The position numbers were made by a program, and so were the translations under genes. From the NCBI RefSeq assembly GCF_963921235.1, contig NC_086097.1:164488001-164552000 (forward strand): a stretch of 64,000 bases of DNA. The letters are read 5' to 3'. Every line of letters begins with the position of its first letter. Within the stretch, counting starts at the first letter, position 1. This stretch comes from Mobula hypostoma (Eukaryota). This document shows, in pieces, positions 6,581-62,590 of the stretch. The notes under the pieces are model-generated. The model did not search any database. It saw nothing but the letters and a program-made list of their open reading frames with translations, and was not told the DNA's origin.

Positions 6581-6708
6581 CAAGAGAAATTCTGCAGATG
6601 CTGCCAATCCAAGCAACACACACAAAAGTTTGGAGGAACTCAGCAGGCCAGGCAGCATCTATGGAAAAGAGTAAACAGTGGATGTTTCAGTCTGAGACCC
6701 TTCAGGAT
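6581..6708 (-). mobile_element. Penelope-like element 3' end fragment
   Basis: Same about 130-bp family as 9692-9808, 21325-21451, 34425-34531, 38373-38563 and 48317-48444. Confidence 0.7.
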
Positions 6709-9125: not shown

Positions 9126-10815
9126 CAATTATCTCTCTCATCCTTTCCCAACAGGTGTCTGCTCCAGTGCAATGCATATTTAATTTAAACAAGAATCTGA
9201 TACCCTTTGAAGTTGGAATTCTAATAATCTATTTTAATTATCTTACAAACATAAGATTTTGATGCATAAGCAATATTTTTATTTGTATGATTCATTTTGC
9301 ATTTTATCAATTATATTCAACAAAATACAGTTTTCAAAATATGAGCAGAATAAGGGTTTCAGTTACTGCATCTATAAAGCATTTTCAAGCTTCACGTGTT
9401 GACGTGTAGTTAGCTGGATTATGTTGCCTTGGTTTCAGTCTTGATAAGAAAGAATGTTATGAACGCTTTGAATTCTTTCAGAAGTGGCCAGGAAAGAAGA
9501 GTTTATGGGGATGTTTTACATTGTGTAAAGTATCAGCTGAGTTCTCTTTGCTGTCTTGGATTTCCCAGAAGTAAGGGAGATGTTGGTGGATGATAATGAG
9601 GTTCACCATTGAGTAGGATGTCAGAGATACTAGCTTTGTTGTGTCTACCTGCAGATTGAGATTAGGTCCAGAAGCAGATATATATTATCTCACAAGAGAT
9701 TCTGAAGATGCTCAAAATCCCAAGCAACAAACACAAGAATGCTGGAGGGACTCAGCAGGCCAGGCAGCATCTGCTGATGTTTCAGGTTGAGACACACGCC
9801 ATCAGGACTTGTGAATATCGTCTATGTCAATCGTTGAATAACCTGCGGATGTCAATTGTTGCATCCTACATCAGAGACTTGAGAGCTTCGTCATATTCTG
9901 TAACAAGCTGCAGAGAGAGTTAGATGAGATCATTGAACAACCATGTGGGTCTGTGACAATTAGCAATTTGTTTATGCAAATACAGCGCAAATATAGTAAG
10001 CTTTACAAATATAGTTGTTGGGCACACTCATTATCTTTCAGTGATTTGCTGGTGGAATAATTCTTCAGCAAATGAGAAGTCTGCAAAGATGATCTGGGAT
10101 TATAATGATATTCCAGTATCAACACAGTGAGGTTGATGGAGCTCCTTCTGTATTGGTTCAAAGCTTTGCACACTCTGTCCTTTTCTTATCAAACAGAAAG
10201 ACTCAAGTTTGTGTGAAGTTTTTAAGAAATTACAGAACACTTCGGAACTAATGAAGTCGAAAGTACATTGTAATGTAGAAAATGTTCATCTGAGCTACTA
10301 CATATTAATTCCCTGTGCAAGTACTGCAAAATCTCTGCTACTGGAAGAGTGATCAGGTTCAATGCTGATGATTTTGACCTTGTTGCAATTTTCTCCATTA
10401 AGACTGTTATTACTGCTTTGAGGGGAAATGTAAAAGTAATTTATTGGAGTTGGCTGCATCTGATGGCCATTGGGGTTGTGTATGTGCTATCTATTTTCCA
10501 GACTGACTTTGTAAATAGCATCTGGTTACAGCAGATGACGGTAAACACTGTTCCTTCAGCATGGTGATGAGTTTAGTCATAGTCTATAACGATAAAAATA
10601 ATACAGGATGTCACTAATGTAATTAAATAGTACTCCTTATTGAAAAAATAAATTCAATATCTTAGGCAGTCCTTAAGCATCAAGAATACATTACTTCTAC
10701 CACAGGTTTGTGGGTTTTGAGGTGGCTGATGGAGACCAATGTGGGAACTGTTGACTGTTCCACAGATAGGGCAGGTAGTAGCCAGTGATGCAGGTGAGTG
10801 GTTAAGTTTGTGAGA

Positions 10816-12810: not shown

Positions 12811-12942
12811 ATTTGCTTATTGTTCAAAACTGCTATGTTGATGTTTTAGCAATTATGATGTATGTGAAATTGCTTGGAGATGGTCTTTGATTTGTTCATA
12901 GTATGGCTTAATTGTAATCTACCTCTTGACTGTTGATATGTA

Positions 12943-14355: not shown

Positions 14356-14799
14356 TAAGATTCTTAAACTTAACATGAATGAGTCATGTTTTATTGACAC
14401 ATTAATAAAAAGAGGTTGGAATAGTTGGTGATAGCTCCACTCCCAAGCATCATAGTGGAATAAAGATCATTATAAAATAGCTTAAGGTCGTGGGGTTATG
14501 TCCCTCTGGAGCGCTAACAGAAATATTCTGGAGTGATGCTGTTTGATGCATTGTAACTATCTTCCTGTATGACAACTCTGACTGCTCAGTGATTTTTCAC
14601 CCCCCCCCTAAATTCTCAGTGTTTCTTAATGTTTAGTGGTGGCAGCTTTATTGATGTTGGGTGCAGGTACCATATTGAAGTGCCTCATTTGATTTACTTG
14701 AGGGTAACTTTGGTGCTAATTTTAATTTGCCCATATATCTAAGCAAGTTTGTATGGTTTCCCATAGGTGTTTTCTGATAGATAAGTCTCTCTTTTGCAA

Positions 14800-15430
14800 T
14801 AAGTGACACAGTAGCATCCCCAAGTATTGTTGCTGTCTCTCAATGACCGAGAACTGGGTTCATCCGGACACTGGGTGTAGTGTGTATCAAGTTTGTCAGT
14901 TCTCCTATGACTGTGAGTTTCCTGAGGGTGCTCTGGTTTCCTCCCAATGCAGGTAGATTTGTTAATTGGGCATTGTAAATTGCCACTTTATAGGTGAGCA
15001 ATAGTATTTGTTAATTGGGCATTGTAAATTGCCACTTTATAGGTGAGCAATAGTATTTGTTAATTGGGCATTGTAAATTGCTTCTTTATAGGTGAGCAAT
15101 AGTATTTGTTAATTGGGCATTGTAAATTGCTTCTTTATAGGTGAGCAATAGTATTTGTTAATTGGGCATTGTAAATTGCTTCTTTATAGGTGAGCAATAG
15201 TATTTGTTAATTGGGCATTGTAAATTGCTTCTTTATAGGTGAGCAATAGTATTTGTTAATTGGGCATTGTAAATTGCCTCTTTGTAGGTGAGTGATAGTA
15301 TTTGGATGTGTTTGATGAAAAGGTGGGTTAAAAAATATGGGATTAACGGCGTATTAGTCTAAATGGGTGCTTGATGGTCAGCACAGACTCAGATGGCCAA
15401 ACTGCCTGCTTCTGTCTCTGTCCCTCTGAC
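14800..15430 (+). mobile_element. V-SINE/HE1-like SINE containing an internal minisatellite
   Basis: Degenerate tRNA head, V-domain GGGTGCTCTGGTTTCCTCCCA at about 14926-14946, CR1-like tail ending about 15430. Confidence 0.7.
14957..15304. repeat. 49-bp minisatellite, 7 copies
   Basis: Unit GTTAATTGGGCATTGTAAATTGCYWCTTTATAGGTGAGCAATAGTATTT starts at 14961, 15010, 15059, 15108, 15157, 15206 and 15255. Confidence 0.97.
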
Positions 15431-21324: not shown

Positions 21325-21535
21325 TAAGAGAAAATCTGCAGATGCTGGAAATCCAAGCAATACATACAAAATGCTGGAGGAACTCAGCAAGCCAGGTAAA
21401 ATCTGGAAAAAAGTAAACAGTTGATATTTCAAGCTGAGACCCTTCATCAGGGCACTTCTTCAGTCCTAATGAGGGGTCTCGGCTCAAAACATCAACTGTT
21501 TACTCTTTTCCATAGATTCTTCCTGGCCTGCTGGT
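21325..21535. mobile_element. Inverted pair of Penelope-like ends, each with a degenerate hammerhead motif
   Basis: 21385-21451 is the approximate reverse complement of 21465-21533. Plus strand reads CAGTC CTAATGA GGGGTCTCGGCTC AAAAC ATC AACTG. Confidence 0.75.
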
Positions 21536-21607
21536 TTGCTCTGTGTTAGGACCGTTCCTGTAATACCATGGGCTCCTATCTTGTTAAGCAGACTCATGTA
21601 TGGCAAC

Positions 21608-34245: not shown

Positions 34246-35144
34246 CAATTTAAAAATATATCTAATTGGACAGAACACTGCACTCTCTTACCTAGTACGA
34301 AGGTACTTGGTGCCATTTGTAATGGAACAGTTGTAACTGGGTGTTCTTCAGGTAAAGTGAGAAATACTTTGCTCCCAGCAGTGCAGCCAGCTTTTCTGGA
34401 GAGACAAACAGAATTATTGACAAATGTGGAAATCAAAGCAATCACACAAAATGGTGGAGGAACTCAGCAGGCCAAGTAGCATCTATGGAAAAGAGCGAAC
34501 AGTTGACATTTCAGGCTGAGACTCTTCATTAGAATTATTGTGTCAGTTCATGATTTATATCAGATTTAGGAAGTGTTTGATAAACAGGTATAAATGATGT
34601 TAAGAGTAGGGGAAGGGAGATCAAAAGGAAAGATCTGGTAAGGAAAAAGGTGGACTAAATTAAAATACAAAATGGACTGGTATTACCAATTCTTTTTGTG
34701 TTGTACTGAGGCAAATGACCTCAATGCTTTGGAAAATAACTGATAAATAAAGATTGGTGTTTTATGAATCAGTTCATGTTTGTCACAGTACGAAAGCTGA
34801 TATCTTCTAAATACTAGAAATTATCAGCTACACTCTGGCCCCCCTTTTTATTAGAGTAAATTATCTTTAAATGAAGATTTTAAGCTATTCATAATATCCA
34901 TGCTGGTAATAAGTGTGTGAAAACCCAACAACTGACCTTAGCAAGTTGAGATGTGATCAATAAATTAATTGGGAAAATAAAATGAATTAGATGTGTTAAC
35001 CAACTGTTTTGCAAGTGTTGTCTATAATAAATGTAAAAAAGCATATATTTCTATTACGTACATCAAAGGTAGTGTGTGATGTTTTCCTCATCCATTGTGG
35101 ATATGTATATGTGAAATTGGGCTCCTTCCCAAGCTAGTTACATA

Positions 35145-38372: not shown

Positions 38373-38563
38373 ATTTGTCTTCCCTCCTGTCTTCTCTTAT
38401 CATTTCAGATCTCACCCTCCCCCTCCCACTTTCAAATCTCTTACTGTGTCTTCTTTCAGTTAGTTCTGACGAAGGGTCTTGGCCCAAAACATTGACTGTA
38501 CCTCTTCCAATAGATGCTGCCTGGCCTGCTGCATTCCACCTGCATTTTGTGTGTGTTGCACAT
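38373..38563 (+). mobile_element. Penelope-like 3' end with decayed hammerhead motif
   Basis: TAGTT CTGACGA AGGGTCTTGGCCC AAAAC ATT GACTG at 38461-38498, followed by the family tail. Confidence 0.7.
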
Positions 38564-41500
38564 ATTTGAAAGATCAGGGAACTGACATTTCTCACTGCCA
38601 TACCAATCCATTCCATGCTGGGCATTCCCTCTTTTCCCTTCTCCCATCAAGCAGAAGATACAAAGTAGTAAAAACACCTACCACCAGGCTCAAATATAGC
38701 TATTATAAGACTATTAAATGATTCCCTTGTACTATAAGATGGACTCTTGCCAACACAATTTACCTCATCATAGCCTTGCACCTTATTGTCTGCCTGAACT
38801 GCACCTTCTCTGTAACACTTGATTCTGCTTTCCGTTATTTTCTCTTGTACTACCTGTATAGTACAGTGCATTGGTGTACTGCTCTCCTTGTCTGTGAAGT
38901 AGGAAGTACACAATTCAGAAATAATCCAAACTCCACTTAATTGAACACGGTAGCGAGGACCTAGTGTCCAAGCTCCAGGTGCTTTATTGGGCAACACTCA
39001 CATATACAATTGAATAAGAGTAAAACAGAGAGAACCAGAAAAATCTAAGTACTTAAAGCAGCTAACATGATTAAGTCAAACATTCATAAATTAGGAATAT
39101 ATGAAGATAGACTTGCATGTAAAATATCCAAAAATTATGCACCACATGAGTAAACAAAGTTTTAAAGTTTGTGAAAAGATTAATACGTTAAGCATTACTT
39201 CCCACTGCTTGTCAAAGACTATACTGATAATCAGGGAAGAAACTTTTACATGTTAGCACAAAAGGTAGAAAAATCCCCTAATCTCAATGGCATGACCGAA
39301 GGATATTGTTTCCATCCCTTCAGAACTGATCAGCTAAATTCTGCATCTGATGCCATTACTGTTTATAGAGGTTCTGTTCTGTAAAGTTTCCAGTTGAGGT
39401 GATGCCCTGTGCTATTGTGTGAGAAGCAATATAGGAATGAGAATTAAAGATGAGTTTGCATCTGCAGAGACTGGAACCAATTGCCTCGTGTTCGTAATTG
39501 GCATTGCATGTGCTGTGAGAATGCACAGAACCTCATGACTGAAGATGAAAGATCCTGGATTAAAGTCTGACGTGCAGCCTTGGCTGTTGATATACCTCTG
39601 CACCTTAGAGTCCTTTGTTACTTTCTGTAACTCAAGTTCATTGCAAATACCAACAACATTCATACCACAGTCGGAATATAGTCCTTCAGAGGGACTACAG
39701 TCAACAAAAAATTGTCACAGTGCATTAATGGAGCTGGATGGATCCATGGACTCAATCACTTCTATGTAGACAAAGAGCACTGCTCATCACTTGCCGTGAG
39801 CTAAACTTCCTCTTCAAAGTTCAAAGTATATTAATAATCAAAGTATGTATACTATATAAACCTTAAGATTTGTCTCCGTACAAGCAGCCACTAAACAAAG
39901 AAACCCAATAAAAAAAGATCTTCAAATGCCCAATGTGCATAGAAAAGAAACCAAATTGTGCAAACAATAAAAATAAGCAAATAACTTTTCAGAACTGAAG
40001 TTCATGCAAGTGAGTCTGTGACAACAAAGCTAGTCATCACTGCAGCCGATCCAGGAGCCCGTCAGTTGCAGGCCATCACCTCAGTTCAGTGCAGAGCTGG
40101 AACAGTGAGCAGAGCACTAGCCCATCCCTCATCTCCAGAATGAACACCCTGATCTTTTAAATCTGGCCTGATGCTTAAGTGGACCAAACCTCAGGTCGTT
40201 CTTTTCACTCAGATCCTGGCCAAAGCCCCACCTCCTCAACTCTGCCTCGCCTCAGTTCTGCCGCATCAAATCACCTCGGTCCACTCCTGCAACAGCGGAA
40301 CATTAGCTAATTCCGTGCTCTCGGGCCCAGGCCCCACTGCCTCAATTCAGCCTGCCCTGTACCTGCCACGCCACAACCATTCTGCACCTTTGAGACTTAA
40401 GTTCATACTGAAAGAATGCCAGGTCATACGGTCAGTTCCAAAAGCAGAGTTACAGGCTATTGATAGCAGTGATTGTGTCCAAGAAAAAGTGTGATTGCTA
40501 TAGTAATCTATAGTTTTGTGCTTCACCAGTGCCATCTTAAATCTTGTACACCTACTAACCACGGTCCAAGAACAACGACATCCAGACCAGTGTATATGAA
40601 GGGTGGAGAGGTTGGTTCACCCAGTGAAAAAATGTTCTCTTATTTGATCCTGTTTTTCTGCTGTTCTGTTCCTTTGTGGCATTACTGTTTCGTAATAAGT
40701 TAGCAGTGAACAGTAGAGGGTGCCGAAGACAAGACGAACTCATCGTATTCCATATGTTGTCCCTGCAGCATTAATGCCATCTACAAAGTCAACTATCTTG
40801 CAGTGGGGTAAGAAGAATTGTTTTTCACTCCTAAATTACATGTATTTTAACTAAACTTAAATCTGCACTGTTTACTCAAACATTCAAACATCCTGGGAAA
40901 AAATCGGAGGATTAACACGAGGGTTTAACACATCCTTGTATTTACCACAAGAGGGCGCTTTGACTCTACATTAGCGTATGAACAGCCATGAGTTTTCAGT
41001 GCTGCTAACGGGATAGTGCTGCACACTTCAAAGAACAATTTCAATCTGAAGTTACACTCTCTGTGATACACGAAACAATTTGTAATTAAGATGTTAATAA
41101 TTGTTTTTAAGATTATGAAAGGTATAGATAAGGTCATGGTAACAGTCTTTTTCCCAGTGTAGGGGAATCCAATACTGAGGGCATAGACATGGGACGAGAG
41201 GGAAAAGATTCAAAGGGGCTTTGTGATATTTTCAGTCCTTGGAAGTATCTGTTTTGGGACACTGGGGTCAGGATGACTGTGCACAATCAAGGCGTTAGTG
41301 CAGTGGTTGTTGAGCCGGGGGAAAGGGCAGATATTGATCCACTTAACCTGCCAGTGAATTTGAAAGAATTTACGGAGCTGGTAATTATACCTCTGGTGCT
41401 TGGAGGTGGTAGGTAGTCCACATCTCAGTAAGGAGCGAGAGAGCAAGGATCACACTCAGCTTCTTAGAGACAGCTTTTCCCCATCTGCCATCAGATTTCT

Positions 41501-41989: not shown

Positions 41990-44900
41990 CCATAAGATAT
42001 AGAAGCAGAATTAGGCCATGTAGCCCATCGAGTCTGCTCCATTTCATCAGGACTGATCCATTTCCCTCTCAGCCCCAATTTCCTGTCTCCTCCCCATATC
42101 CCTTCATGCTCTGACTAATCAAGAATCTATCAACCTTTAAATATATCAAATGACTTCACCTCCACAGTCGCCTGTGGCAATGAATTCCACAGAGATTCAC
42201 CAATCTCTGGCTAAAGAAATTCCTCCTGATATCCGTTCTAGACGAGCATCTCTCTACTCTGAGGCTGTGTCCTCTCATCTTAGACTCCCTTATCATAGAA
42301 AATATCCTCTCCACAACCACTCATATCAAGACCTTTAGCATTTGTTGTGTTTCAATGAGATTCCTCCGCGCCCCCCCCCCCCATTCTTCTGAATTCCAGT
42401 GACTATAGGCCTGGAACCTTCAAACGCTCCTCGTATGATGAGCCTTTCAATCCCAGAATTATTTTCAAGAAACTTCTTTGAGCGCTCCCCAAAGTCAGCA
42501 CATCCTTTCTCAGATGAGGGGCCCAAAACTGCTCACAATACTCCAAGTGAGGCCTCATCAGTACCTTATAAAGCCTCAGCATTACATCCTTGCTTTTATA
42601 TTCTAGTCCTCTTGAAATGAATGCTAACACCGCAATTGCCTTCCTCATTACCGACTCAACCTGCAAATTAACCTTTAGGGATTTCTGCACAAGGACTCCC
42701 AAAATAGTCTACACTTTTATTTCTTCAACTAGAGTGCATGACCATACACTTCCCAACACTTTATTCCATTGCCACTTCTTTGCCCATTCTTCTAATCTGT
42801 CGAAGTCCCACTGTAGCCTTCCTGCTTCCTCAACACTACCTGCCCCTTCACCTATCTTCATATTGTCTGCAAACCTTGCAACAAAGCCATCAGAGGGTGT
42901 TTAGAGATGGAAACAGGGAGGAGCTGAGGACAATACAGAGGGACCTGAAAGCCAGGATCAGGGAGGCTAAAGACAGGTACAGGAGGAAGCTTGAGTGGAA
43001 ACTCCAGCAGAACAACATGAGAGAGATCTGGAGGGGGATGAGGACCATCACTGGGTTCCGGCAAACCAGCAACAGAGGAGTTGAAGGCAGTGTGGACAGG
43101 ACCAATGAACTTAACCTGTTCTTTAACAGATTTGACATTGTGGCCCCCACATGAGTCATCTGTTGTCGGCCCCCAAACAACACATATTCCACTCTCCCCT
43201 CCTACCCCTCCTCACAGTCCCCCACCCTGCTCCCATGACCCTTCCCCACACAAAACCACCACGGTGGGCTTCACGGCTGAACAGGTGAGAAGACAGCTGA
43301 AACATCTCAACCCAAGCAAAGCTGCAGGACCGGATGGTGTCAGTACCAGGGTGCTCAAAGTCTGTGCCCCTCAGCTATATGGAGTACTTCGCCATGTATT
43401 CAACCTGAGCCTGAGGCTCCGGAGGGTTCCTGTACTGTGGAAGACGTCCTGCCTCGTCCCTGTGCCGAAAACGCCACGCCCCAGCGGCCTCAATGACTAC
43501 AGACCGGTGGCATTGACCTCCCACATCATGAAGACCCTGAAGAGACTTGTTCTGGAGCTGCTCTGGCCTATGGTCAGGCCACACTTAGATCCCCTCCAGT
43601 TCGCCTACCAGCCCCGACTAGGAGTTGAGGATGCCATCGTCTACCCGCTGAATCGTGTCTACGCCCACCTGTACAAGCCAGCGAGTACTGTGAGGGTCAT
43701 ATTTTTTGACTTCTCCAGTCTGTTCAACACCATCCACCCTGCTCTGCTGGGGTAGAAGCTGACAGCGATGCAGGTGGATGCTTCCCTGGTATCATGGATT
43801 CTTGACTATCTGACTGGCAGACCACAGTACGTGTGCTTGCAACACTGTGTGTCCAACAGAGTGATCAACAGCACTGGGGCTCCACAGGGGACTGTCTTGT
43901 CTCCCTTTCTCTTCACCATTTACACCTCGGACTTCAACTACTTCACAGAGTCTTGTCATCTTCAGAAGTTTTCAGATGACTCTGCCATAGTTGGATGCAT
44001 CAGCAAGGGAGATGAGGCTGAGTACAGGGCTACAGTAGGAAACTTTATCACATGGTGTGAGCAGAATTATCTGCAGCTTAATGTGAAAAAGGCTAAGGAG
44101 CTGCTGGTAGACCTGAGGAGAGCTAAGGTACTGGTGACCCCTGTTTCCATCCAGCGGGTCAGTGTGGACATGGTGGAGAATTACAAATACCTGGGGATAC
44201 GAATTGACAATAAACTGGACTGGTCTAAGAACACTGAGGCTGTCTACAAGAAGGGACAGAGCCGTCTCTATTTCCTGAGGAGACTGAGGTCCTTTAACAT
44301 CTGCCGGATGATGCTGAGGATGTTCTACGAGTCTGTGGTGGCCAGTGTTATCATGTTTGCTGTTGTGTGCTGGGGCAGCAGGCTGAGGGTAGCAGACACC
44401 AACAGAATCAACAAACTCATTCATAAGGCCAGTGATGTTGTGGGAATGGAACTGGACTCTCTGATGGTGGTGTCTGAAAAGAGGATGCTGTCCAAGTTGC
44501 ATGCCATCTTGGACAATGTCTCCCATCCACTACATAATGTACTGGGTGGGCACAGGAGTACATTCAGCCAGACACTCCTTCCACCGAGATGCAGCACTGA
44601 GCATCATAGCAAGTCATTCCTGCCTGTGGCCATCAAACTTTACAACTCCTCCCTTGGAGGGTCAGACACCCTGAGCCAATAGGCTGGTCCCAGACTTATT
44701 TCATAATTTACTGGCATAATTTACATATTACTACTTAACTATTTATGGTTCTATTACTATTTATTATTTATGGTGCAACTGTAACAAAAACCAATTTCCC
44801 CCCGGGATCAGTAAAGTATGACTACTACTACTACTATTCCATTATCCAGATCATTGACATATAATGTAAACAGAATCGGTCCCAACACAGACCCCATTGA

Positions 44901-46440: not shown

Positions 46441-48316
46441 GTTAAAAGTGGAAAGTTTAAGGTGGAAAGGTTTGTTTTGCATGTCATCCATACAGATTAT
46501 TTCAAGACACAAACATCAGATCAACCCTTCTGGCAGTGGTGGAATTCAAACATACACCTCCATGGAGATTGGAACCTTAATCCCGTGCCTTTGATCACTC
46601 AGCATAAGTTGAGTTAAAGATTGCAAAAACCTCTAACAGAATTCATTATTGATAGTCTCTTAACAAATAATTTCTAGCTACTTTTTAAGAGACCATTTAC
46701 AAGTTTGTCTTAACTGTAAAATGATTACTGAACGCTGTAAATCAAAGCTCTTGCTAAACCTCATGTCTGTTCTGTGTTTTGTCTCAGGCTGCTAATGTCA
46801 GTGGGATTTGCTATCAGGTTATTCAGAAGCAAAGGAAGGTAATCAAGAGGGCACTGCCAGCTCCTAACCCCAGACGGACAGAGAGAGAGGTGAAGGCTCG
46901 TCAATCACGGCTGATGTGTGTATGGGAAGTGTTAACAGAGGAGATGGTCAGAATGGGGAAGAGAAATAAACAATGCTGGGGCTATGAGATACAAAGTCAC
47001 TGGGAATCTGAAATCAAAGAGAATAGTAGATATATCCAACAAGATGGGCAGCACCTGAGCAGAGACCAAAAGGAAGTTAATATCATAGACTGATATCCTT
47101 TCATTAGAGGTTCATCTGTTCTTTCGATAGACTTTTGACCTCACAATCTACGTTGTCATGCCCTTGCACCTTAACCCCAAATGGATGTCTCAGTCCTCTA
47201 GCTGACCAAATAGGTGGACTCCCTGCGTAGAAGTTATACAAATACTGCTTAGTTTTCACCATTTGAAGGGTTTGTGCTGCAGAAAACTAAGACAAGAAAG
47301 GCCTAAGAGATGCTTGTGAAAATATTTCCTTCAGCACAGTCTGTATTTGCTCATGCTGAAGACTTTATCTTGAAGTGTGGGGACCTGCAGGAACAATAAA
47401 TATACACAAGGGAAAGAACAACGCTGGTCCTTGTATATAACAATGAAGGCTTACATTTTTGATATCTTGATAGATGATTAGCATTAACAATGGTTTTTCC
47501 ATAATCTAGATAAATAAACAAAATAATAACATTTTAATTAATTTGTGCGATGAGTGCAGTTGGCCAGACTTTATTAATTGCCATTCTTGATTGCTCTTGA
47601 ACTTTGATGTTTCACTGGAAACTTTAGAGGACGGTTCACTGTAAATGCTTCTTTGCTGCGTGGGTCTGGAGTCACATTTTGGTCAGGTTAAGTGAGGACA
47701 ATAGATTTCCTTCAACAGACATTAGTAGGCCTAATGGAGATTTATAACAATCTGGCCTTTCCATGCACACTGAGGCATTTTTAAAATCTATGATTCCTGT
47801 TTCCTTAACTGAGATTAAATTCCCATGTCTGTGTTTGTGGGATTTCAGCCTCTAGTTGACTGCCGCACTCTCATATAACACCATAGCTTTAAAGCCGCAA
47901 AGCTTTCCCTATTGCTTGGTTTCAAGCTGTTCAATATCAGCCTTTATTGCAGTAGTTGCTCTTGGTAATGTCTCAGTTTCCCAAAGGGCTGGTTTTGACA
48001 TTTTGACTTTTGTGTGACTTATAGGACAGCAGCGATCAGCAAAATGAAGATCCATCTACAGTTCACAGCAGAACTTGGATCAAGAGATTGCATGTTGTTG
48101 AGGCAGCCAGTTGTGTGGTTAACTCAGCATCAGCTTTATTGTCACTGACATGTGTTGTTTTGTAGCAGCAGTACAGTGTAAGACAAAATATTACTGCAGG
48201 TTACAGTAAGATAGAAAAATGAGTATAGTGCAGAATAGTGAGGTGATATTCATTGAATTTTGGACCATTTTGATTTCTGAAAGCAGAGGGGAAGAAGCTA
48301 TCCTTAATATGTTAAC

Positions 48317-48444
48317 AACAGGAATTCTGCAGATGCTGGAAATTCAAGCAACACACATCAAAGTTGCTGGTTGAAAGCAGCAGGCCAAGCAGCATCTATA
48401 GGAAGAGGCGCAGTCGACGTTTCAGGCCGAGACCCTTCGTCAGG
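48317..48444 (-). mobile_element. 128-bp Penelope-like end with 13-bp TSD
   Basis: TSD TTAATATGTTAAC at 48304-48316 and 48445-48457. Confidence 0.85.
48411..48444 (-). ncRNA. Minimal type-I hammerhead ribozyme motif (core intact, 5' arm of stem I truncated)
   Basis: Minus strand reads C CUGACGA AGG-GUCUCGG-CCU GAAAC GUC^GACUG. Confidence 0.7.
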
Positions 48445-49566
48445 TTAATATGTTAACTGTGGGTCTTCGATATCCTGTACCTGCTCCCTGATGGTAGAAA
48501 TGAAAAGGGAGCACATCCTGGATGGTGCGGATCCTTAATGATAGATTACCACCTTCTGAGGCACTGCAATGCCCCCTGAAGATATCCTCATTGCTGGGGA
48601 GGGTTGTGCCCATGATGGGGTTGGCTTTCTTTTTGATCCTGTACATTGGAGCCGCCAGACTCGTTGATGATACAACCAGTCAGAATGCTCTCTATTGTAC
48701 ATCTGTAACACATTCGGGAAAAAAAATTATCTCCAATGCTCAATTTGTTTACTTGTTGGAAAACTGGCATTCTGAAGAGGGTTGCAAGACAGAAACAATC
48801 ATTTCGAATCTGGAAGTGATTCTCCCAGTTGAAATGTGCTTTTGTAACTATCATTTGCATTTTGAAAAATTGTGAATTAACCTGGTGGTGAACGCACGAC
48901 TCCACAGATTAGAATCAACAACTTGATTTACAGGTCCTTCCACCTCATTCAAAGTAAAATCATTAAATGGGAGTGGGGGGTGAGACAAAATTCCCTGTTA
49001 AGTTAAGGTTTCCAGAACTGGGATTTCACCTCTAGATAAATCGCTCGTAGAATAGTTTGAAATAATGTTTTTAAAAAATGGGTGTATTTACAAAGACTAC
49101 CTTTATCCATGGTATACGTGATGAGCTACATCTACTTCTGTTCACCAGCATTGGTCTTTAATTTTCACCAGATAAAAAGAAATAATAAAAAATAACCTAT
49201 TCTTGTTCAGTTTCCTATGTTTCTTGTAATGACTAATTTTTACCTTATGCATATTAAACTTTTTCCAAAGATATTTCTTCTCATTGCTGGAGCTAAGAGA
49301 GCCAATGGATTCCATGTGTGTTAACCACACATCTGCTGCTTATTATTCATCACCTTATAAGCCCTGTGCAGCCTGATGAAAGCTTGGGACAGTCATCAGC
49401 TATTGGTTTGACATGTTGAGCCTGAAGCTAACCTTTCTGTTTCTTTGTTATTTCCAGAATTGCCAGCAAGAAAAGAAAGTGCCACCATCTTTAAATCAAT
49501 TATGACCCCAAGATTAATGACAAGAAATGGTTCTGTGCACCAAGGTTGTGTTTGTTTTGAAATGTA

Positions 49567-52500
49567 TGTAACGCTCGGTAAGGTTTCACTGCTAATGTCA
49601 TGGTTTCTCTGTAGCAGCAGTGTTTGGGTTATGACTAGAGATAACGGGGGCTTTGGAATGTATGCAATCAATGAGAGGCATGTTGTTTCTTCTTGTGTGT
49701 CTGAGAGAAGGGATACACAGTTTTTTGTTGGTGAGAAATGAAGAGAGAAGACGTGAGTGGAGTGAGTTGGTAGACCGCTGGATGGAGTGGTCTGGGAGTT
49801 GGTGATGCTTGGAGGAGGTCGATGGGGAATAGATGGACAGAACCATGAGCTCCCACATGCACATTAGACTGGGCCCCTTTTCTTTTTATTTTCTTTACTA
49901 ACCCTATAGTCAGATTAAGAATTATAAAGCTCAATCATTTAATTGCCTATGGTGTACTGTCTGATATTTTGCGGATTTGTAACCGGGCAATGCATCATGC
50001 AGCATCCACACAAGCGAGATTTCTCAGTTTGGCCGGGCCAGAGGCTGTCTTCCCCTTGACAAATGCATGCTGGCCGAACCTGTGGGTTACAATTGTGGGG
50101 GCTCATCTGGGAATGATTTTGTTGGATGCTGTGTGATTGCCATGTTAGCAAAGTTACTTTTGCAGTGTGGCGGTTTGATAAAATGGTGGGCACAGACCTT
50201 GTTTTAGTTCAGACCAGCACTGATGAACTGCCTGCTACTACCGGTGCCCCAGGTGAGACGGGGCCGTGGCCTCTCCATACTGTCAAGGAAGGAGGAGAAG
50301 GTAGAGGAGCAGGCTGAGTCGCAAGTCGAGCTACCCGTAGCTGGGGGTGGAGACTTCAAAGACAGGGTTCTATTGTTTCTGAAGAGGGAGGGGAAGGAGT
50401 GGTCAGATTTGGAATGTCTAATTAGTCCCCGTTCCCCAGTGAAGAGTGAGAATTCTGAGTTGGCATCAGCCCTTACCTCTCTGGCGAATAATTGGCCCAG
50501 TGCACAGGCAGAGGGTCCCCACAAGAAGCTAAGACTTTTCTCTGGAATAATGCCGACCTCCGAGGGGGGACAGGGGTATGAGACTTGGGCGGAGCAGACC
50601 TCTCAGTTGTTAGATGAGTGCCAGTGCTCTGATAATGTAAAGTGACAGAGATTGGTTGAAAGTTTGAGGGAGCTGGCTGCTGACGTGCTGAGAGCTGTGA
50701 CAACACGCCAACCCTTAGCCAACACTGCTGATTACCTGGGAGCATTGGAGAGCGCCTTTGGGACAACAGGGAGCCCAGTGGAGCTCATGATGGGGTTTCA
50801 GAACGGTCATCAGAAGGGGGAGAAGCTTTCTGCTTACATCTTTCGGCTAGAGAAGCAGCTAAATTGCTGGCAGCGCAGACGGGCAGACAGCTGAGGTGGA
50901 TCAATTAAGAAGGGACGAGATAGCAAAGGGCACCCAGTCCCAGGACTTGACTGCTTGGGGTCGCTAACTGTCTCATAAGATGCGCCCCTCTCCCTCTTTT
51001 GTTGAGCTGATTAGAGAGGTATGGGAGGAGGAGAATGCAGCAGAGGTGCAGGAGGGCTCTGTCAGCAGGGTACAGTCCTCAGTAGTGACCACGACTAGCC
51101 CAAGCCGGGGGATGGTAAAGGAGATTGTGGCAGAGCTGGGAACTGAGATGTCCCAGGTGTTAACTGCGGGAGTGGACCCCCCCCCCGGTATGATAAGACT
51201 GGTAGAGCGGGGGACCCCCTAAGGGGATGGACTACGCAGAGAGCTGCAGGTGGCCGGTGTTCTGCGAGAAGGGGGGCGGCCGGTATCGTCTGCTATTACT
51301 GTGATGAAGAGGGCCACTTCAGGTGGGAGTGTGAGCAGTGGGAAGCCCCTCGGAGAGTGAGCCCCCAGGTACCTAAGCAGGGAGAGGCGTAGGGAAACTT
51401 AGAGGAGACCCAGCGAGTGAACGGCCTGGTATCTCTGGGGGAACAATATACCCAGCAATATACCAAGGAAGCACTGAAAGCGAAAGGCCCTATTCCCGAA
51501 GGCTTAGTAGGACCAAGCTCCAGTGTGTCACTACAGATGGAGGGTATTTGTGCTAAAGCCATACTCGATACCCGGTCGCAGGTCACGTTGTTATACCATT
51601 CATTTTACAACTGGTATCTGAAGCATTCACCATTGACACCATTCAGGGCACTGAAGATCTGGGTTCTCAGTGCCAGTGATTGTCCATACGACTTGTTAAT
51701 GAAGCTGGAGTTCTCGGAGGCTGATGTGGGAGTGTCTGAGGTCCTTGATACATTAGTGCTGGTTTGTCTGGACCCTGTTGAGAGGGGTGGCGTTTCAGTT
51801 CTGGTGGGGACCAACACCCCTCTTGTGAGGAGGCTCCTGGGTGCTTGCAAGGAGAAGATTGGGGAGAGTTTTCTGGGAACATTTTCCGTGCACTTGCTGT
51901 TTCAAGCTGAGTTTGAGGAAGTGCAGGGTACCGAATGTAGATGTGGGACTGTGTGGTTCACCCTGTCAAAGCCAATCGTGTTACAGCCCGGGGAAGTAGT
52001 GAGAGTGATGGGGACCCCCAAATTTCCTGGAGTGCCTGAGGATGCGGCCCCAGAAGACCATGAGGGGGAGTCGGAATTTCTAGCTGGGGTACTGGTTAGG
52101 CCTGAACTGCAGAGACCCTCAGCTGTACGGGAACGCAGGATGGCAGCGATTGCAGGAACACTACAAAGAGGGAGGTCACCTTCAAGCAGGGGATGCCCCT
52201 GGCGCATTTGTTCCCGGTGATGGTAATGTCTAGTGTCCCTGTGAGACAAGGCGGGGAGAAACTATAGGAAAAGGGAAGAAAGTTGACTGCTGAGTCATTC
52301 AACTTCGGGGACTCGCTGGTGCCTGCGGGTTGGAAGAGGAGGGTAGAGAAGATGTTGAAGCTGGAAGGTGTCTTTTCCACTGCGAGTTTGATGTGGATTG
52401 TTTGCCACACTATCCCAGTGACCGAGGACAGCCCATTCAGAAAGAGGTTGTGGCAACTGGCCCCTGCAGAGGGGGAGGACGTTCGGCAGCATTTGTGTAA

Positions 52501-55473
52501 GTTGAAGGAAGCTGGGATCATCACAGAGTTCCGAAGCCCCTATGTGTCCCCAATAGTAGTGGCCTGAAAGAAGAATGGGAAGGTACAGATGTGTGTGGAC
52601 TATAGGACTCTGAACAGGCACACCGTCCCTGACCAGTATACGGTCCCGAGGGTCGAAGATGTGCTGGCCTGTTTGAGTGGTGCGAAGTGGTTCAGTGTCC
52701 TGGATTTGAGGAGTGGATATTACCAGATCCCAATGAGTGAGGCTGACAAAGAGAAGACGACATCTATATGTCCCCTGGGATTCTTCCAGTTTGAAAGGAT
52801 ACCCCAGGGCATATAGGAGGCTCCTGCAACCTTCTAGTGGCTCATGGAGAAGATGGTGGGGATATGAATTTGCTTGAGGTATTTGTGTATCTGGATGACC
52901 TCCTGGTGTTTGGATCCACCTTGGAAGAACATGAAGCGAGGCTACTGAAGGTGCTAGGCTGCCTGAAAGATGAAGGGTTAAAACTTTCCCTGGACAAGTA
53001 TCAGTTCTGCAAAACGTCTGTTAGCTATGTTAGGCACATATTCTCACGGGATGGAGTAGCTACAGATCCGGATGAGATAGAAGCAGTGACCACCTGGCCA
53101 AGACCCCAGACTGTGAGCACTCTGCGCTCATTCCTCAGATTTTGTGGTTACTATCAGAGGTTCGTGAAGGGCTACACGAAAGTGAGTCACCCATTGAATC
53201 AGCTTCTGTGCGGTTACCCTCCCTTGGGGAAGAAAGCGAGGGGGGGAAAGGGCAGGAGGGTGCAGAGTAACTAAGTTCGTCCGAGCCCTTTGGACCAAGG
53301 TGGGAAGAGGCAAAATGTGAAAAGGCTTTCAGTCGCTGAAGGAGCTGCTAACCCAGGCACCGGTGCTGGCTTTTGCGGACCCCCGATTGCCGTATGTACT
53401 CCACACGGATGCCAGCCGAGACGGTTTAGGGGGCGTCCTGTATCAGGATCAGGGCACTGGGTTGAGACCCATTGCGTTTGTCCGCCTGAGTCTGCCACCC
53501 TCCGAGAAAAACTATCCCACGTACAAGTTGGAGTTTCTAGTGTTGAAATGGGTGGTGGTGGATAAACAGAGTGACTACCTCTATGGGGCCAACTTTGAGG
53601 TGAGAACCTCAAAAATCCCCTAACTTATCCTGACCTCGGCGAAACTGGATGCCACAGGCCATCGGTGGTTGGCGGCGTTGTCTGCCTATGATTTCAGCAT
53701 GAAGTACTGGCCAGGAAGCAGGAACATTGATGCTGATGCTTTGTCCCAATGGGTGCATGAGGGACTGGACAGGGACGAGGAGTGGGAGAGCGTTCCTGCC
53801 CCGGGGGTGAAGGCCATGTGTTAGTTTGCAATCACGGTGAAGGCAGGGGAAAAGGAGGGGCAGGATTGAGCAATGGATCAATTGGGGGTTTCTGATGATG
53901 TAATTCCACAAGTTTACCATAACCTGACAGCTCTGAAGACAAATCAGCTGCCGGAATTGAGCTCTGGGGAAGTGGCAGCTGTTCAGCAAGCTGACCCGGG
54001 CATCAGTACCATTTGGTCAGCGGTCAAAAAGGGAGACGTGGCTCAGGCCGAGAAGATAAAACAAGCAACGGTGCCTCCATTACTGAAAGAATGCCCTCAG
54101 TTGGAGTTGCCGAGCCAGATCCTATACCGGGTCATGTCACCTCTAGATCAACCTCGACGTTGCCAGTTGATTCTGCCAGAGGAATGTGTTGAAGTCACTT
54201 CCTGATGATTCTGGACGTTTGGGGGTTGAAAAAACCTATGGTTTGCTCAGAGACCGGTTTTACTGGCCCCGAATAAGCCGGAGATCGAAGAATGCCGCAA
54301 GTCGTGCATTCGAAGCATACGGCGGAGGACAGCTTACACAGGCAGCTCCTTTGTCCCACCTTCACAGTGCGGGGCCTCTGGACCCGATATGTATGGATTT
54401 TCCGTCAATAGAACCTGATGCCAGCAACATGGCGAATGTCTTAGTCATCAAGAACCAGTACACCAGATATGCTCAGGCTTTTCCTACCAAGGACCAGAGG
54501 TCATCCACTGTGGCCAAAGTGTTATGGGAGTAGTATTTCATCTATTATGGCCTCCCCAGGCGGATACATAGTGATCAGGGATGGGATTTCAAGAGCAGAC
54601 TCATCCATGAGTTACTGGGCATGCTTGGAGTTGAGAAGTCAAGGACCACGCACTATCACCCGCAGGGTGATCCCCAGCCTGAGCGGTTTAATCAGACCTT
54701 GCTAGACATGCTCAGAATCTTGGAGATCAGCAAGAAGAGCAGGTGAAGTCAACATATTGGACACCTGGTTTACAGTTACAACTGTACCTGAAATGAAGCT
54801 ACTGGGTACTCGCCATACTACCTGATGTTTGGGCGCGAGGTGAGGGTGCCCATCAACCTTTGTTTTGGGACTGACAAGGGCGATGTGCCACTGAAGACTT
54901 TTCTGAAGTATGTGTCTGATATGAGAAGGGAGCTGAAAAGGGCCTATGAATTAGCTGGGGTCGCGGCTGCCAAGCAGAATAAGGAAATAAGAGGAGGTAT
55001 GATCAGAAGGTAAGGTTCTTCCAACTCCTGCCGGGAGACCGAGTCCTCATAAGGAATTTGGGGCTGACTGCTGGGCAGCTATGTCTTATGTGGTGGAGAG
55101 CGAGATGCCATACCTACCAGTTTTCTGGGTGAAACCAGAGGATGGGAAAGGGCCCGTCAAGATTCTCCTTCTGCCTCCGGGACAAGAGGTGCAGGTTGAC
55201 CCAGAGCCTGACTTGGAGCCTACACCTAGTAAGAGGACTCTGCGGCGAGGCAGGGCGACTGAAGGACCAACAGCAGGAGAGGGTAGGCCGGCCTCTGCCC
55301 CTGAGAGGGATACTGATTTGGAGGATGAGGACCTGGATGTGTGGTATATGCTGCCTTTTGCTAACTCCCCATTGATGAGAAACAGGCAAGGTACTCCCAG
55401 ACCTTCTCCCGCTGAGTCAGGTGAAATTGTCTTCCCCCAGACAAACGCATGCTGGCCAAACCTGAGAGTTACA
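49567..55473 (+). mobile_element. Gypsy LTR retrotransposon with PNMA-like gag; 3' LTR mostly deleted; TSD TGTA
   Basis: 5' LTR TGTAAC...GTTACA at 49567-50091. Gag KKLRLFSG...YETWAEQ, CCHC knuckle CYYCDEEGHFRWEC at 51291-51332, protease LDTRSQVT, RT YLDD, RNase H HTDASRDGLG, then integrase. 46-bp 3' LTR remnant at 55428-55473. TGTA at 49563-49566 and 55474-55477. Confidence 0.93.
50096..50112 (+). promoter_or_regulatory. Primer-binding site, tRNA-Pro type
   Basis: TGGGGGCTCATCTGGGA against the tRNA-Pro PBS TGGGGGCTCGTCCGGGA. Both differences are CpG decay. Lies 4 nt after the LTR. Confidence 0.85.
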
Positions 55474-55959
55474 TGTACATTTCAGCCTAGTCATTTTGTA
55501 TATTAACACCAGCAGAGAGCCACCGTTACCTCTGTGCGGGAAAGATTCTGGAACAAACTCATCACTAATGAGGATTTTTCTTTTGCTCGTTATGTAGCAA
55601 CGAAAGACATTCTTGCAATTTTACTCAGGTTTGACAATACATGCTCACTGTGACAACACCACGAGCAACAGATACAGTAGTTGTCCGAAGAAACTACCAG
55701 GGATTAAAAATAGGAGATATTTGTGGACCTGAGGAGTTTGTAGGATGCAAGCAGATCACATTGCAGGACTTGCACCCCAAGGTCACTCTGTATATCAATG
55801 CTCCAAAAATCCATATCATTTGCAGTACCTAATGTGTCTTCAAGAGTTTGACTTTCTTGAGTGCATTACCTCACACTCGTTTGGAATAAATTCCATCTGC
55901 CACTGCTCTGCCCAACTGTCCAGCTGGATATGAATGTATATTTGAACAACCTTCTTCAC

Positions 55960-58147
55960 ATACATTTTTCATACAATAGTAAGACAGGAGCCTGCGGCCA
56001 TACATTGATTACAGAGGGCTGAATCGCATAATAACCAAAAATCATTATCCCCCCTTTCACGAACACTGCCTTCAAGATTCTCCAAGAAGCACGACTATTC
56101 TTAAAGTTAGACTTATGAAGTGTGTACAACCTTATCTGCATAAAGCAGAGTGATGAGTGGAAGACTGCATTCAATACACCCACAGGGCACTGTGAGTACC
56201 TGCTCGTGTACTTCAGCCTCGTGAATGCTCCAGCAGTTTTCCAGGCCTTTATAAACGACATGCTCTGGGATGTTCTCTATAAGCATGCCTTCGCCTACTT
56301 GGATGATATCCTAATCTTCTCAAAGTCTATAGAAGAGCATATTGCTTATGTCAGGGATATCTGAAAGAAGCTTCTAGATCAGGGACTCTGTCAAGCTAGA
56401 GAAGTCCGAATTTCACATAACCACCACTTCATTTTTGGGTTTTATCATCTCTTGTGCCAATCTCAAGATGGACCCTACTAAAATACATGCAGTCAGAGAT
56501 TGGCACAACCATCCAATGTGAAACAAGTTCAATGATTTCTGGAATTTACCAATTTTTACATAAAGTTCATCAGTGGCAGCCCTGCTGACAACACTAACCA
56601 AGAGATCCACAGGTCCTTTTGTTTGGGCTACTGAAGTGGAGGCTGTCTGTGAAGAGCTCACACAGCGGTTCACAACAGCTCCCATTTAGGTTTCACTTAA
56701 CCCAGACCTTCATTTCATCGTGGAGGTGGATATGTCAGACGTCGGAGTGGGTGTAGTGTTGTCTCAATGGACACCTTCAGACAAACTGCACCCATTTGTG
56801 TTCTCCAGGTGGAAAAAGTGAAATATGACGTCGGGAATACTCGCGGTCAAGTTGGCTCTGGAGGAATACCATCACTGGATTGAGGGGGTCTGGAACCTTA
56901 TTATTCAGGCCACAAGTACCTGGCTTATATTGAGGTGACTGAATTCCAGGCAGGCCAGGTGGTCTCTTTTCTTTAACCACTTTAATTTCATCCTGACATA
57001 TCGACCGGGGTCAAAAAAAAAACAGAAAGCAGATACCTTGTCTCATCAGTTCGATGAACATGTAAGAGAGGAGCTGTCTACCACCATTTTGCCCCATGCC
57101 AGGGTGATCGTGCCCATTCGTTAGGGAGTCAGCGCACTGGTTTGCAAGGCCCAGACACAAGGGAAGATTCCTAAGAACAGTCCTCAGCTCATCTATTCGT
57201 CCCAAGTTCCCTCAGGTCTCAACTGGGACACAAATTGAGAAAGACCACTCACCCGGGGATTTCCAGGACCCGCAAGTTCATCAAGAAGATACTGGTGGCC
57301 CGGAATGGTGAGAGAGGTCCAACAATATGTGTAGGCATGCAAGATGTTTGCCTGGAACAAGGTGCCCTGCACCCAACCTCAAGAGCACTTCACCCTGTGC
57401 CTGTTCCGACGGACCATGAATGCGTATCTCCATGGACTTTCTCAAGGGTCTTCTGCCTTCCAAGAGGAAGACCATCATCAATGTAATTGTGATCATTTTT
57501 CAAAGGCCTGCAAATTTATTGCCCTGACAAACTATCACTTGCAGCAGGAATGGCCAAAGTTGTCCTGCACCAGGTCTTTACGATTGTGACGAAAGTACAC
57601 ATAGACTAAGATGTTGACTGTCCTGTGCTATCACCAGTGGCATCAACAGTTGATCTGCCAGCTGTCTTCAGGAGAGAGATAAGTAAGACAATGGAGCAGC
57701 ATTTGGAAATGTTAATGAAGAGACGAGAGAGATTAACGGAAGGAGACTGGGTATTGTCAAGACTGGTTTGCTTTGAACCTGAACTATTTGAAGTGATGGA
57801 CAGGCGATACCCCAACAGGGGGATAAAAAGGGACAGGTTCGCTAAGGCAACAGACACCACTCACGACACCACGAGGTATCGAGACCCTGGAAGCGGTGCG
57901 CCCCCACAAGTTGGTGGGAGTTTTGGACCAGCCATAGATGCACAGGGTGGAAAGATTCAGTCGGCGGGAACCTGGTGTGTGTGTCCACCCTTGCCTGGGT
58001 GCCGGGTTCACCGCAGAGGAACAATCGTATCTGAAAACGGAGGGGTCACAGTCGGTGACCTCAGAAGACATTACAAAGGGCTTGCCCGAAAGCTAACTGC
58101 GAGAAATATCAAAGGTCTGTTGAATCCGATTTTGAATATCAGCATTT

Positions 58148-58182
<35 letters not shown>

Positions 58183-59684
58183 AACGGCACAACAACGATT
58201 GCTGCGAACTGAACTAAATTGAACTCTGTCACTTGTGATTGAACATTTTACCCCTAGACTGCGATAGAGCTTGATTGATCCTATTATCCTAGTTCTGTGT
58301 ACATGTGTGTTTATTCAGTGCTAACCTGTTGCATTTATATCCTTACGATTAGAGTACTGTGTTGCTTATTTCTCTAATAAAACTTTCTTAGTTCCAGTAA
58401 TCCAGACTCCAACTGAGTGATCCATTTCTGCTGGTTTGGCAACCCAGTTACGGGGTACATAACACGATGTATGGCATCCCGGTGGACATTCTGTCAGATC
58501 ACGGTCCTCAATTTGTATCATGTTTTTGGAGGAATTCTATACACCAACTGGGGCAACAGCAAGTCTTCCCTCTGGGTCCAACTTCCAGACAGAGCGGGTG
58601 TACCAGGAAATGGAATAAACCCTAAGGTGCCCGGCATCAGAAAAAACAGACAAGTGTGACCATTTCGGGTGGGCAGACATTGCTCACCACACTTAGCAGC
58701 GTTCGGCGCATGGGGTGTGCCCATTCGAATACCAATTTGGCTATTTTCCACCACTTTTCCCTGAGCAGCAGGCTGAGGATGTTGGCCAATGCTGCAAGGA
58801 GAAATGGACAAGAGAGATTTTGTTGGCCTCTATCCAAAAGGCTGAAATCAAGGCTAACTGCAGGAGAAGAAAGGGACTAGCTTTGCAGCCTGGGCAACAG
58901 GTCTGGCTGTCTACTTAGGATTTGCCTCTCCAGGTGGAGTCTAGGAAGTTGGCACCCAAGCTCATTGGCCCCTTCAAGGTTCTCAAGGATGTAAACCTGG
59001 TGGATTACACCTTGCAGCTCCCCAAGACCCCAAGATCAATCCCACTTCCCACAGATCCTGTAAACCCCAATTCCCGTCACCACCCAGGTTTGTCATTGGG
59101 AAACAGGTCTTCACTGTAAAAAGAATTCTGGGTTCACAAACTATTTGAGGTACTCAGCAGTTCCTTGTGGACTGAGAAGCATTTGGGCCTGAGGAATGGT
59201 GCTGGGTTCCTGAAAGGGACATCTTGGTTCCAGTTGTCATCAATGACTTCCATCATCATCTCTCCAAGCAGTCAGGAGTTGGCCATAGGGAAGGGGGCCC
59301 TGTTATGACATGCAGTAGACTGTGCCAGCCTCTGGTGTATAGACACTCTAACTCTCCAGAATATGAAGAGTTGGCATGGCCCCTTTAAAGATTCAGACCC
59401 ACCCCACTAATTAGTGGCCATGTTTGGCACCAGAGTTTCAATATTTAAGGAGCACCTGAAGTGAGGTTTGATGCTCTATTGTCAGCTCTACTTTGGATTC
59501 ACATCTGACATCTAGTTTAGAACCCTGAACTTGTTTCATTCTCGATTTGTCTCAATTCTAGTCTCGGAAACTCCAGCTCTTGAGTCCTAACTATCCTCGC
59601 ATAGGACTCTCATCATACTTACTAATTGCCTGCTGTATATATTAAACACAAAGAGCTCAGCACAAGTCCCTGTAGTACATGACT
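55960..59684 (+). mobile_element. Sushi-ichi-like chromovirus (Gypsy) pol remnant with PPT and 3' LTR
   Basis: [15 protein letters not shown]...[10 protein letters not shown], integrase, [13 protein letters not shown]. Chromodomain at 59110-59226 (FTVKRIL...FLVD*EAFGPEEWCWVPERDIL). PPT AGGGAAGGGGG at 59287-59297. LTR from TGTTATG at 59301 to about 59684 with ATTAAA at 59641. Confidence 0.88.
57585..58464 (+). mobile_element. Solo LTR (880 bp), TSD CGAT, inserted in the Sushi-like integrase
   Basis: TGTGAC...ATAACA termini. CGAT at 57581-57584 and 58465-58468. AATAAA at about 58376. Confidence 0.92.
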
Positions 59685-62350: not shown

Positions 62351-62590
62351 TGTATTGCCATGTGCTCTACTCCAGCCCCTGTAGTACTGAGTACTCTGTC
62401 TCTCTTCTGTTTCTCATTATTACCTGTATTGCTGCCACCTGTGTCTCATTGTGCTCCACCTATCATCTGCCTCTCTGTTTATTTTTCAGTGTATTTCAGT
62501 CCTGTGTTTTCAGCTGTTTGTTGCCAGATTGTGCCAGTGAGTTTTCCTGAGCCTTTCCTGCATTTGTATCTGTACTCTGTCTGTCTGAAT

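Follow-up and report, generated by a model that had tools for sequence, protein, structure and literature searches.

A 128-bp unit headed by a hammerhead ribozyme motif (48317..48444, minus strand) has recently been inserted into an older repeat in the stretch of Mobula hypostoma DNA analyzed here, which comprises 64,000 nucleotides of contig NC_086097.1 (positions 164,488,001 to 164,552,000 of the forward strand) and is referred to below as the window. The unit consists of the hammerhead at its head and ~95 nt of downstream terminal sequence, belongs to a high-copy repeat family and is bounded by a 13-bp target-site duplication. It is very likely that this short insertion was made through target-primed reverse transcription by a Penelope-like element (PLE).

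The unit lies between the two members of a perfect 13-bp pair, TTAATATGTTAAC, which occurs at 48304-48316 and again at 48445-48457 on the plus strand, around 128 bp. The left copy is AT-rich, with 2/13 G+C, and the right junction is matched with 0 differences by a contig of organism A (record 8, run X1). Among 3000 random placements, a repeat of at least 13 bp was present in 9; every one of these was at least 19 bp long, and they probably stem from tandem arrays. The comparison with other organisms was based on contigs only, taken from four of 23 listed public runs and aligned to 48170-48590. In organism B, a contig of 394 bp (record 17, run X5) aligns to 48170-48303 and 48445-48590 without a break, its positions 257 and 258 being consecutive across the site, so that 141 bases are skipped, that is, the 128 bp of the insert plus 13 bp. 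The same contig shows 6 differences and 1 gap from the window in ~280 bases.

The target of the insertion is an older, decayed interspersed repeat (48278..48618), which matches 28271-28365 and 12348-12479 and which we take, by resemblance, to be similar to a long interspersed element (LINE). When the empty site was rebuilt with one copy of the duplication, it aligned collinearly to the older repeat at 28.3 kb with a score of 83, versus 71 with two copies and 66 with none. Because the orthologous site is empty and the older repeat is collinear with a single copy, the evidence supports reading the 128 bp as a retroposed unit whose target-site duplication is genuine. An initial annotation, made from the sequence alone, had described exactly such a unit, and its description is borne out by the confirmed sequence, by the empty site in organism B and by the one-copy alignment. 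The empty site and the older-repeat alignment together also provide a date, and the insertion would therefore be about as old as the split between organisms A and B, or younger. With an empty orthologue and a flank divergence of ~2%, it is a clean, dated and lineage-specific marker, and its junction would record how a PLE primes its copying and ends it.

The hammerhead motif of the 48.3-kb copy

On the minus strand, 48411-48444 reads one C, CUGACGA, A, stem II, GAAAC, GUC and GACUG, and both conserved boxes, the GUC triplet and GACUG were found as initially annotated. The box from C3 to A9 (CUGACGA) occupies 48437..48443, and beside it the 5' arm of stem I is reduced to one base, 48444. The interval 48424..48436 holds the unpaired A (48436) and a stem II of 4 bp, GGGU/GCCU, with a CUCG loop and a G10.1-U11.1 pair that probably reflects CpG decay. 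Within 48416..48423 are the GAAA box (48423-48420), the GUC triplet (48418-48416) and stem III, which has no loop and is palindromic at 15.2/16.2; the palindrome ACGU, already recognized in the earlier description, could be located at 48420-48417. The predicted cut falls at 48416/48415, and the 3' arm of stem I, GACUG (48411..48415), has no partner in this copy. All the core boxes, namely CUGANGA, GAAA and an NUH triplet, are thus present in the 48.3-kb copy.

A loose hammerhead pattern is expected to match 0.70 times per window and matched 46 of 100 shuffled sequences, which is not significant. A strict descriptor, which requires the unpaired base, at least 4 pairs in stem II starting with G, a palindromic 15.2/16.2 and UH, gave two matches in the window, located in the 48.3-kb copy and in a second copy of the family at 21.4 kb, versus none in 500 dinucleotide shuffles. 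For stem II, a helix of 3 bp (AGG/CCU) with a 7-nt loop had been proposed; RNAfold instead places GGGU/GCCU, with 4 bp and a 4-nt loop, after the unpaired A, and this register, which agrees with the published consensus of PLE minimal hammerheads (Cervera and De la Pena 2014, PMC4209133, Fig. S3), is favored. The core had also been called intact, which is correct for the catalytic boxes but not for position 11.1, where a U leaves a G-U pair in stem II. This position is a C in two of six aligned copies, and the dinucleotide at the 10.1/11.1 site is TG in 5/7 copies and CA in 2/7; across the copies, TG or CA is found at four dinucleotides of the motif, a signature of CpG decay. Since both TG and CA occur at the 10.1/11.1 site, the ancestor most likely had a CpG there, i.e. 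a G10.1-C11.1 pair, with one decay at this place in the 48.3-kb copy.

The 48.3-kb copy is most likely a dead ribozyme, because the 5' arm of its stem I is missing and it has no neighbor for dimerizing. Its stem I is limited to 1 bp, versus 3-5 bp in minimal hammerhead ribozymes (min-HHRs); the flank gives no arm beside the box, and in the best fold the first box is paired with the cut site. The earlier suggestion that stem I was cut after 1 bp, leaving a possibly inactive copy, agrees with these folds. When six copies were folded jointly with RNAalifold, the result was a non-hammerhead fold, and co-folding of two head copies gave no hammerhead dimer. Downstream of the motif, a stem-loop is predicted at 48331..48397 on the minus strand, with an 8-bp closing helix (48397-48390 with 48338-48331). 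It shows 82% of cells paired and no covariation, and the fold of the whole 128-mer is not unusually stable (z -0.32); the stem-loop may be a candidate structure for binding or initiation by the reverse transcriptase (RT).

The repeat family and its probable Penelope assignment

Searches with BLAST and a profile identified seven family copies in the 64 kb of the window and no shorter, 3'-only copies at E<0.01. The copies fall into two subfamilies, one with the copies at 48.3 and 38.5 kb and a sister subfamily with those at 6.6, 9.7, 21.3, 21.5 and 34.4 kb. The 38.5-kb copy (38455..38582, plus strand) keeps the 5' arm of stem I, in decayed form, together with an upstream pyrimidine tract ending in CAG, and its CpG sites have decayed in all four of four cases. 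Two copies of the sister subfamily are arranged head-to-head within 21326..21545 (21326-21452 on the minus strand, 21459-21545 on the plus strand), with the upstream edges of their hammerheads at the junction, and form a 91-nt inverted repeat whose hairpin reaches -54 kcal/mol (z -12.6); an Rfam microRNA match on this inverted repeat is spurious. The remaining copies of the sister subfamily are all on the minus strand. The first (6582..6708) begins 2-3 nt before the first box and has a 7-bp duplication candidate, which is weak, as at least 7 bp were repeated in 635 of 3000 random placements. The second (9692..9806) carries an internal deletion and starts ~4 nt upstream of the first box. The third (34410..34540) starts at the first box and has a 10-bp duplication candidate (34410-34419 and 34531-34540); its 3' end is ~15 nt shorter, and its 5' end and the first box overlap by 2 nt.

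In the sister subfamily, stem I has the 5' arm CAGUC, which the 21.46-kb copy retains with a stem I of 5 bp. The initial annotation had located the family arm at 21461, and CAGTC does lie at 21461-21465; this arm, however, belongs to the sister subfamily, and that of the 48.3-kb copy's own subfamily is UAGUC, as seen in the 38.46-kb copy and in the loose-end consensus of run X5. At the other end, the family sequence continues beyond the 3' end of the 48.3-kb copy (loose ends before 48314 and 48320). The 3' ends are ragged, and the seven copies have neither a poly(A) nor a simple-repeat tail. The contigs aligned per run numbered 46,395, 26,016, 13,879 and 2,039, nearly all of them on the insert, showing that the family is present in very many copies in three organisms, although such contig counts are no copy number.

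The proposed membership in PLEs draws on the kind of motif, the inverted arrangement at the 5' side, the ragged 3' tail, the short AT-rich duplication and the geometry, all of which resemble those of PLEs. The motif fits the PLE consensus CUGANGAH-G..C-GAAAN-palindrome-NUH (PMC4209133), in line with its first identification as a PLE minimal type-I hammerhead with a palindromic stem III. Inverted head-to-head copies and sequence past the 3' end have both been described for PLEs (PMC8557442), for which duplications of 8-10 bp are given (PMC3846280). The 3' end of the 48.3-kb copy is located 119 nt from where stem II starts, and every copy in the window is too short for an open reading frame (ORF).

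If a PLE was responsible, its GIY-YIG nuclease would have nicked an AT-rich site within the older repeat, and the 3' end thereby released on the plus strand of the left flank would have primed copying at an internal point of the element RNA. The last 3 nt of the left duplication (48314-48316) match the continuation of the family sequence, and this 3-nt microhomology at the putative priming site may have helped. Copying would then have proceeded for 128 nt through an uncleaved hammerhead and stopped at its upstream edge, and second-strand synthesis would have left the 13-bp duplication. Within a full element, cleavage is expected only when the motif forms a dimer or is helped by protein; according to PMC4209133 and a review, published min-HHRs show no cleavage as monomers and weak cleavage as dimers.

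Several observations weigh against this interpretation. The empty site is known from a single contig of a single run (X5). The stability of the hammerhead fold is unremarkable (z -0.61), and an Rfam scan of the window at E<=1, one of the checks first suggested, gave no hammerhead match. Another such check, for covariation of stems I and II, did no better than shuffled alignments, with a score of 0.090 that was reached by 431 of 500 shuffles, although six decayed copies, two of them with the 5' arm, confer little power. At 48412, in the 3' arm of stem I, two thirds of the depth in organism D has another letter, and no matching change of the 5' arm is visible in the loose-end consensus. The identification as a Penelope end was to be supported by a linked GIY-YIG/RT ORF, and while the min-HHR consensus, the head-to-head pair and the ragged 3' ends speak for it, this link was not found: 229 stop-free segments of at least 70 amino acids in the window gave no Pfam match to a GIY-YIG domain, a search that shorter or frameshifted relics would escape, and yielded matches to domains of LINE, gypsy and DNA-transposon type. 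When longer proteins were searched with the translated 38-kb copy, a weak test, none of the 152 candidates scored. Motif scans of metagenome, viral and prokaryote genome contigs returned 0 matches and are uninformative, as little vertebrate DNA is contained there.

The shared 5' edge of the copies

The truncation of stem I after 1 bp had been treated as an accident of one copy, but 5/7 copies end at the same edge. All seven copies keep the whole core upstream of the cut site and none starts at the cleavage site. The start lies 0-4 nt upstream of C3 in five of them, no more than ~12 nt upstream in the 21.5-kb copy and 11 nt or more upstream in the 38.5-kb copy, which presumably begins ~85 nt upstream of C3. 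With the exception of the overlapping 21-kb pair, the upstream flanks of the copies are unrelated (local scores 9-22). In the contigs, the cut site shows no loose-end peak among the six best-supported places per run, and the consensus of the loose ends behind 48444 starts with ACT in all four runs, with a low overall agreement of 0.38-0.46. Among the 12 best of 92 joints at 48444, six leave the element after 2-4 letters. These figures are to be read with the seven copies being a small sample, with contigs not being copies, and with longer copies also being counted at 48444 because the reference ends there. Although no variants are listed at 48413-48444, this was not taken to indicate conservation, since the window copies vary in this region. 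As a separate observation at the same place, tiny tandem or inverted duplications of only the hammerhead at other loci may account for contigs in which the sequence is back at 48395-48413 after 2-4 letters.

In both subfamilies, a pyrimidine tract and TCAGTY are located directly upstream of stem I (38440-38465 and 21455-21465). TCAGTY can be read as an initiator, and it doubles as a splice-acceptor-like site. The shared edge may mark the beginning of the template RNA, and this explanation is ranked above the others, although confidence in it remains somewhat below even. It is a more tentative proposal that the short copies are not random truncations but complete complementary DNAs (cDNAs) of the first ~130 nt of a PLE transcript, which would start at the initiator-like TCAGTY, with the RT starting at the first internal site ~120 nt downstream. 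If this proposal is true, the start of the element's RNA would have been mapped from genomic fossils and uncleaved RNA would be shown to serve as a template in vivo, and the proposal would account for the filling of such genomes with short hammerhead relics. If the clustering holds genome-wide, most inserted copies would have come from RNA uncut by the ribozyme, which bears on the purpose of the PLE hammerhead, and the clustering would provide a simple way to test the RNA start.

The next-ranked explanation, itself unlikely, retains the PLE origin and opposes only the claim that the RNA begins at the edge. Here the edge would arise while the RNA is copied: with both arms of stem I copied, the cDNA would fold back or switch template, which would end synthesis and also give head-to-head pairs. 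The positions of the ends, within the 5' arm of stem I or immediately beyond it, are as this explanation would have them, and the 21.4-kb head-to-head pair joins at the same edge. In six of the 12 best of 92 joints, 2-4 letters beyond 48444 are followed by a different part of the element, and self-priming palindromes have been discussed for PLEs (PMC3846280). However, DNA folds of the cDNA strand for the two arm-keeping, decayed copies formed no stem I and were weak (~-3 kcal/mol), and the 48.3-kb copy ends before its 5' arm was copied.

An independent origin of the unit is distinctly improbable. The copies could in that case form a self-standing, non-autonomous family, similar to a short interspersed element (SINE) or to a monomeric retrozyme, with a fixed 5' end and its own transcription, moved in trans by PLE or LINE enzymes. 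The start of 5/7 copies 0-4 nt from the first box, the dissimilar upstream flanks and the lack of an ORF link in both the 229 window segments and the protein search are consistent with such a family, and monomeric retrozyme copies related to PLE pseudo-long terminal repeats (pLTRs) are known in vertebrates, including one chondrichthyan (bioRxiv 10.64898/2026.07.22.740005). The 38-kb copy, however, extends at least 11 nt farther upstream and agrees there with the loose-end consensus of run X5; therefore the family does not stop at the edge but continues past it. The edge is moreover common to two subfamilies, and retrozymes are described as having canonical rather than minimal hammerheads (PMC7229834). 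The window contains no tandem array of the unit, no exact match to the A and B boxes of RNA polymerase III in six copies on either strand, and no tRNA gene was found. The lack of an exact polymerase III box and of a tRNA-like head speaks against a tRNA-derived SINE, including the hammerhead SINEs of schistosomes, and the seven dispersed copies and the lack of a head-to-tail array in the window speak against a non-LTR retrozyme (LTR, long terminal repeat).

Splicing ranks last among the explanations of the edge within a PLE origin, and it is doubtful that a 3' splice site just before the hammerhead, as in the Penelope element of Drosophila virilis, gave rise to short copies from spliced or splice-processed RNA. 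A pyrimidine tract with CAG 2 and 6 nt before C3 is indeed found in both subfamilies, and a site of this kind is found at 0.17% of the positions in the window; for D. virilis, position 491 is given as the end of the intron and 496 as C3 (PMC2377424; PMC4209133, Table S1). A spliced template should nevertheless add a common upstream exon within the duplication, which is seen in neither the 48.3-kb nor the 34-kb copy, and PLE insertions are known to retain introns (PMC2377424; PMC3846280). In Fig. S3 of PMC4209133, a YAG within 9 nt before C3 was counted by eye in ~23 of 55 rows versus ~15 expected, but the rows are related and this count was too weak to be used. It is highly improbable that an ordinary repeat came to resemble a hammerhead in its tail by chance: the loose-pattern expectation, the lack of an Rfam match and of covariation and the ordinary fold stability would permit it, but the strict descriptor had no match in the 500 shuffles, and features that the boxes do not force, namely the unpaired base before stem II, G10.1, the palindromic 15.2/16.2 and the 5-bp stem I of the arm-keeping copy, are all present in the family.

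Other repeats are also present in the window. Decayed gypsy-type LTR retroelements lie at ~50200-55500 (plus strand; matches to a PNMA-like gag, zinc knuckle, RT, RNase H and integrase) and at ~59900-62400 (minus strand; RT and RNase H matches). Inverted repeats of 217 bp that are 95% alike (12941-13157 and 14142-14357) flank a DDE_3 transposase fragment and make up a young-looking Tc1-type element. A Pogo/Tigger-type DDE_1 frame of 348 amino acids, Tc1-type remains and long LINE RT frames were found at 4091-5134 and 1252-2008 (both minus), 43042-44679 (plus) and 62695-63999 (minus). A tandem array of ~3.5 units of 98 bp, 93-97% alike, occupies 14957-15304, and the inverted repeat copies at 23344-24237 and 57585-58464, 82% alike over ~900 bp, contain open frames of 158-200 amino acids with no Pfam match.

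Comparison with known systems

As a kind, the hammerhead described here is ordinary, since minimal hammerheads of PLEs are published and thousands of copies are present in other vertebrates. A literature search, for which most subscription journals, Repbase and Dfam were outside the scope, returned no paper on the family or on 5'-end clustering, and no paper was returned with four short element motifs. The closest motif type is that of the PLE min-HHRs in metazoan pLTRs (PMC4209133), which share CUGANGA, the unpaired base, a stem II beginning with G, GAAA, a palindromic CG, UH and a short stem I, as well as a U-rich upstream region and an occurrence mostly as dispersed single copies that are thought to be truncated PLEs. 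The 48.3-kb copy differs in having no stem I and a G-U at 10.1/11.1, and no ORF link was found for it; no cartilaginous fish is included in Table S1 or Fig. S3 of that study.

Non-LTR retrozymes and their monomers (PMC7229834; bioRxiv 10.64898/2026.07.22.740005) are similarly short, non-coding, hammerhead-bearing and PLE-related, and occur as dispersed monomers. In one chondrichthyan, retrozymes with a mean unit of 363 bp are reported (bioRxiv 10.64898/2026.07.22.740005). Retrozymes are, however, defined by tandem arrays with a hammerhead per unit, of which the window has none, and a retrozyme monomer should start at the cut site, whereas the window copies start ~29 nt upstream of it.

The Penelope pLTR of D. 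virilis (PMC2377424; PMC4209133) likewise has an acceptor-like AG a few bases before C3, the acceptor being placed 4 nt before C3, and is described with a pLTR-internal promoter. It differs in its start site, which lies ~125 nt upstream of the hammerhead, and in its proven intron (PMC2377424).

Finally, the Poseidon PLE PAc of the green anole (Frangieh et al. 2024, PMC11167929) allows a comparison of priming. In PAc the start codon lies at stem II, which is not the case in the 48.3-kb copy, and its priming site is reported to be without homology, whereas the 48.3-kb copy has a 3-nt match; a clustering of 5' ends at the hammerhead edge is not among the features reported for PAc in the available part of that paper. 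The two are alike in their AT-rich target and in an uncleaved RNA template, which for the 48.3-kb copy is the proposed one. Copying in PAc begins at AT-rich nicks, 111-118 nt past where stem II starts, and this internal start, ~110-120 nt downstream of stem II, compares with 119 nt in the 48.3-kb copy.

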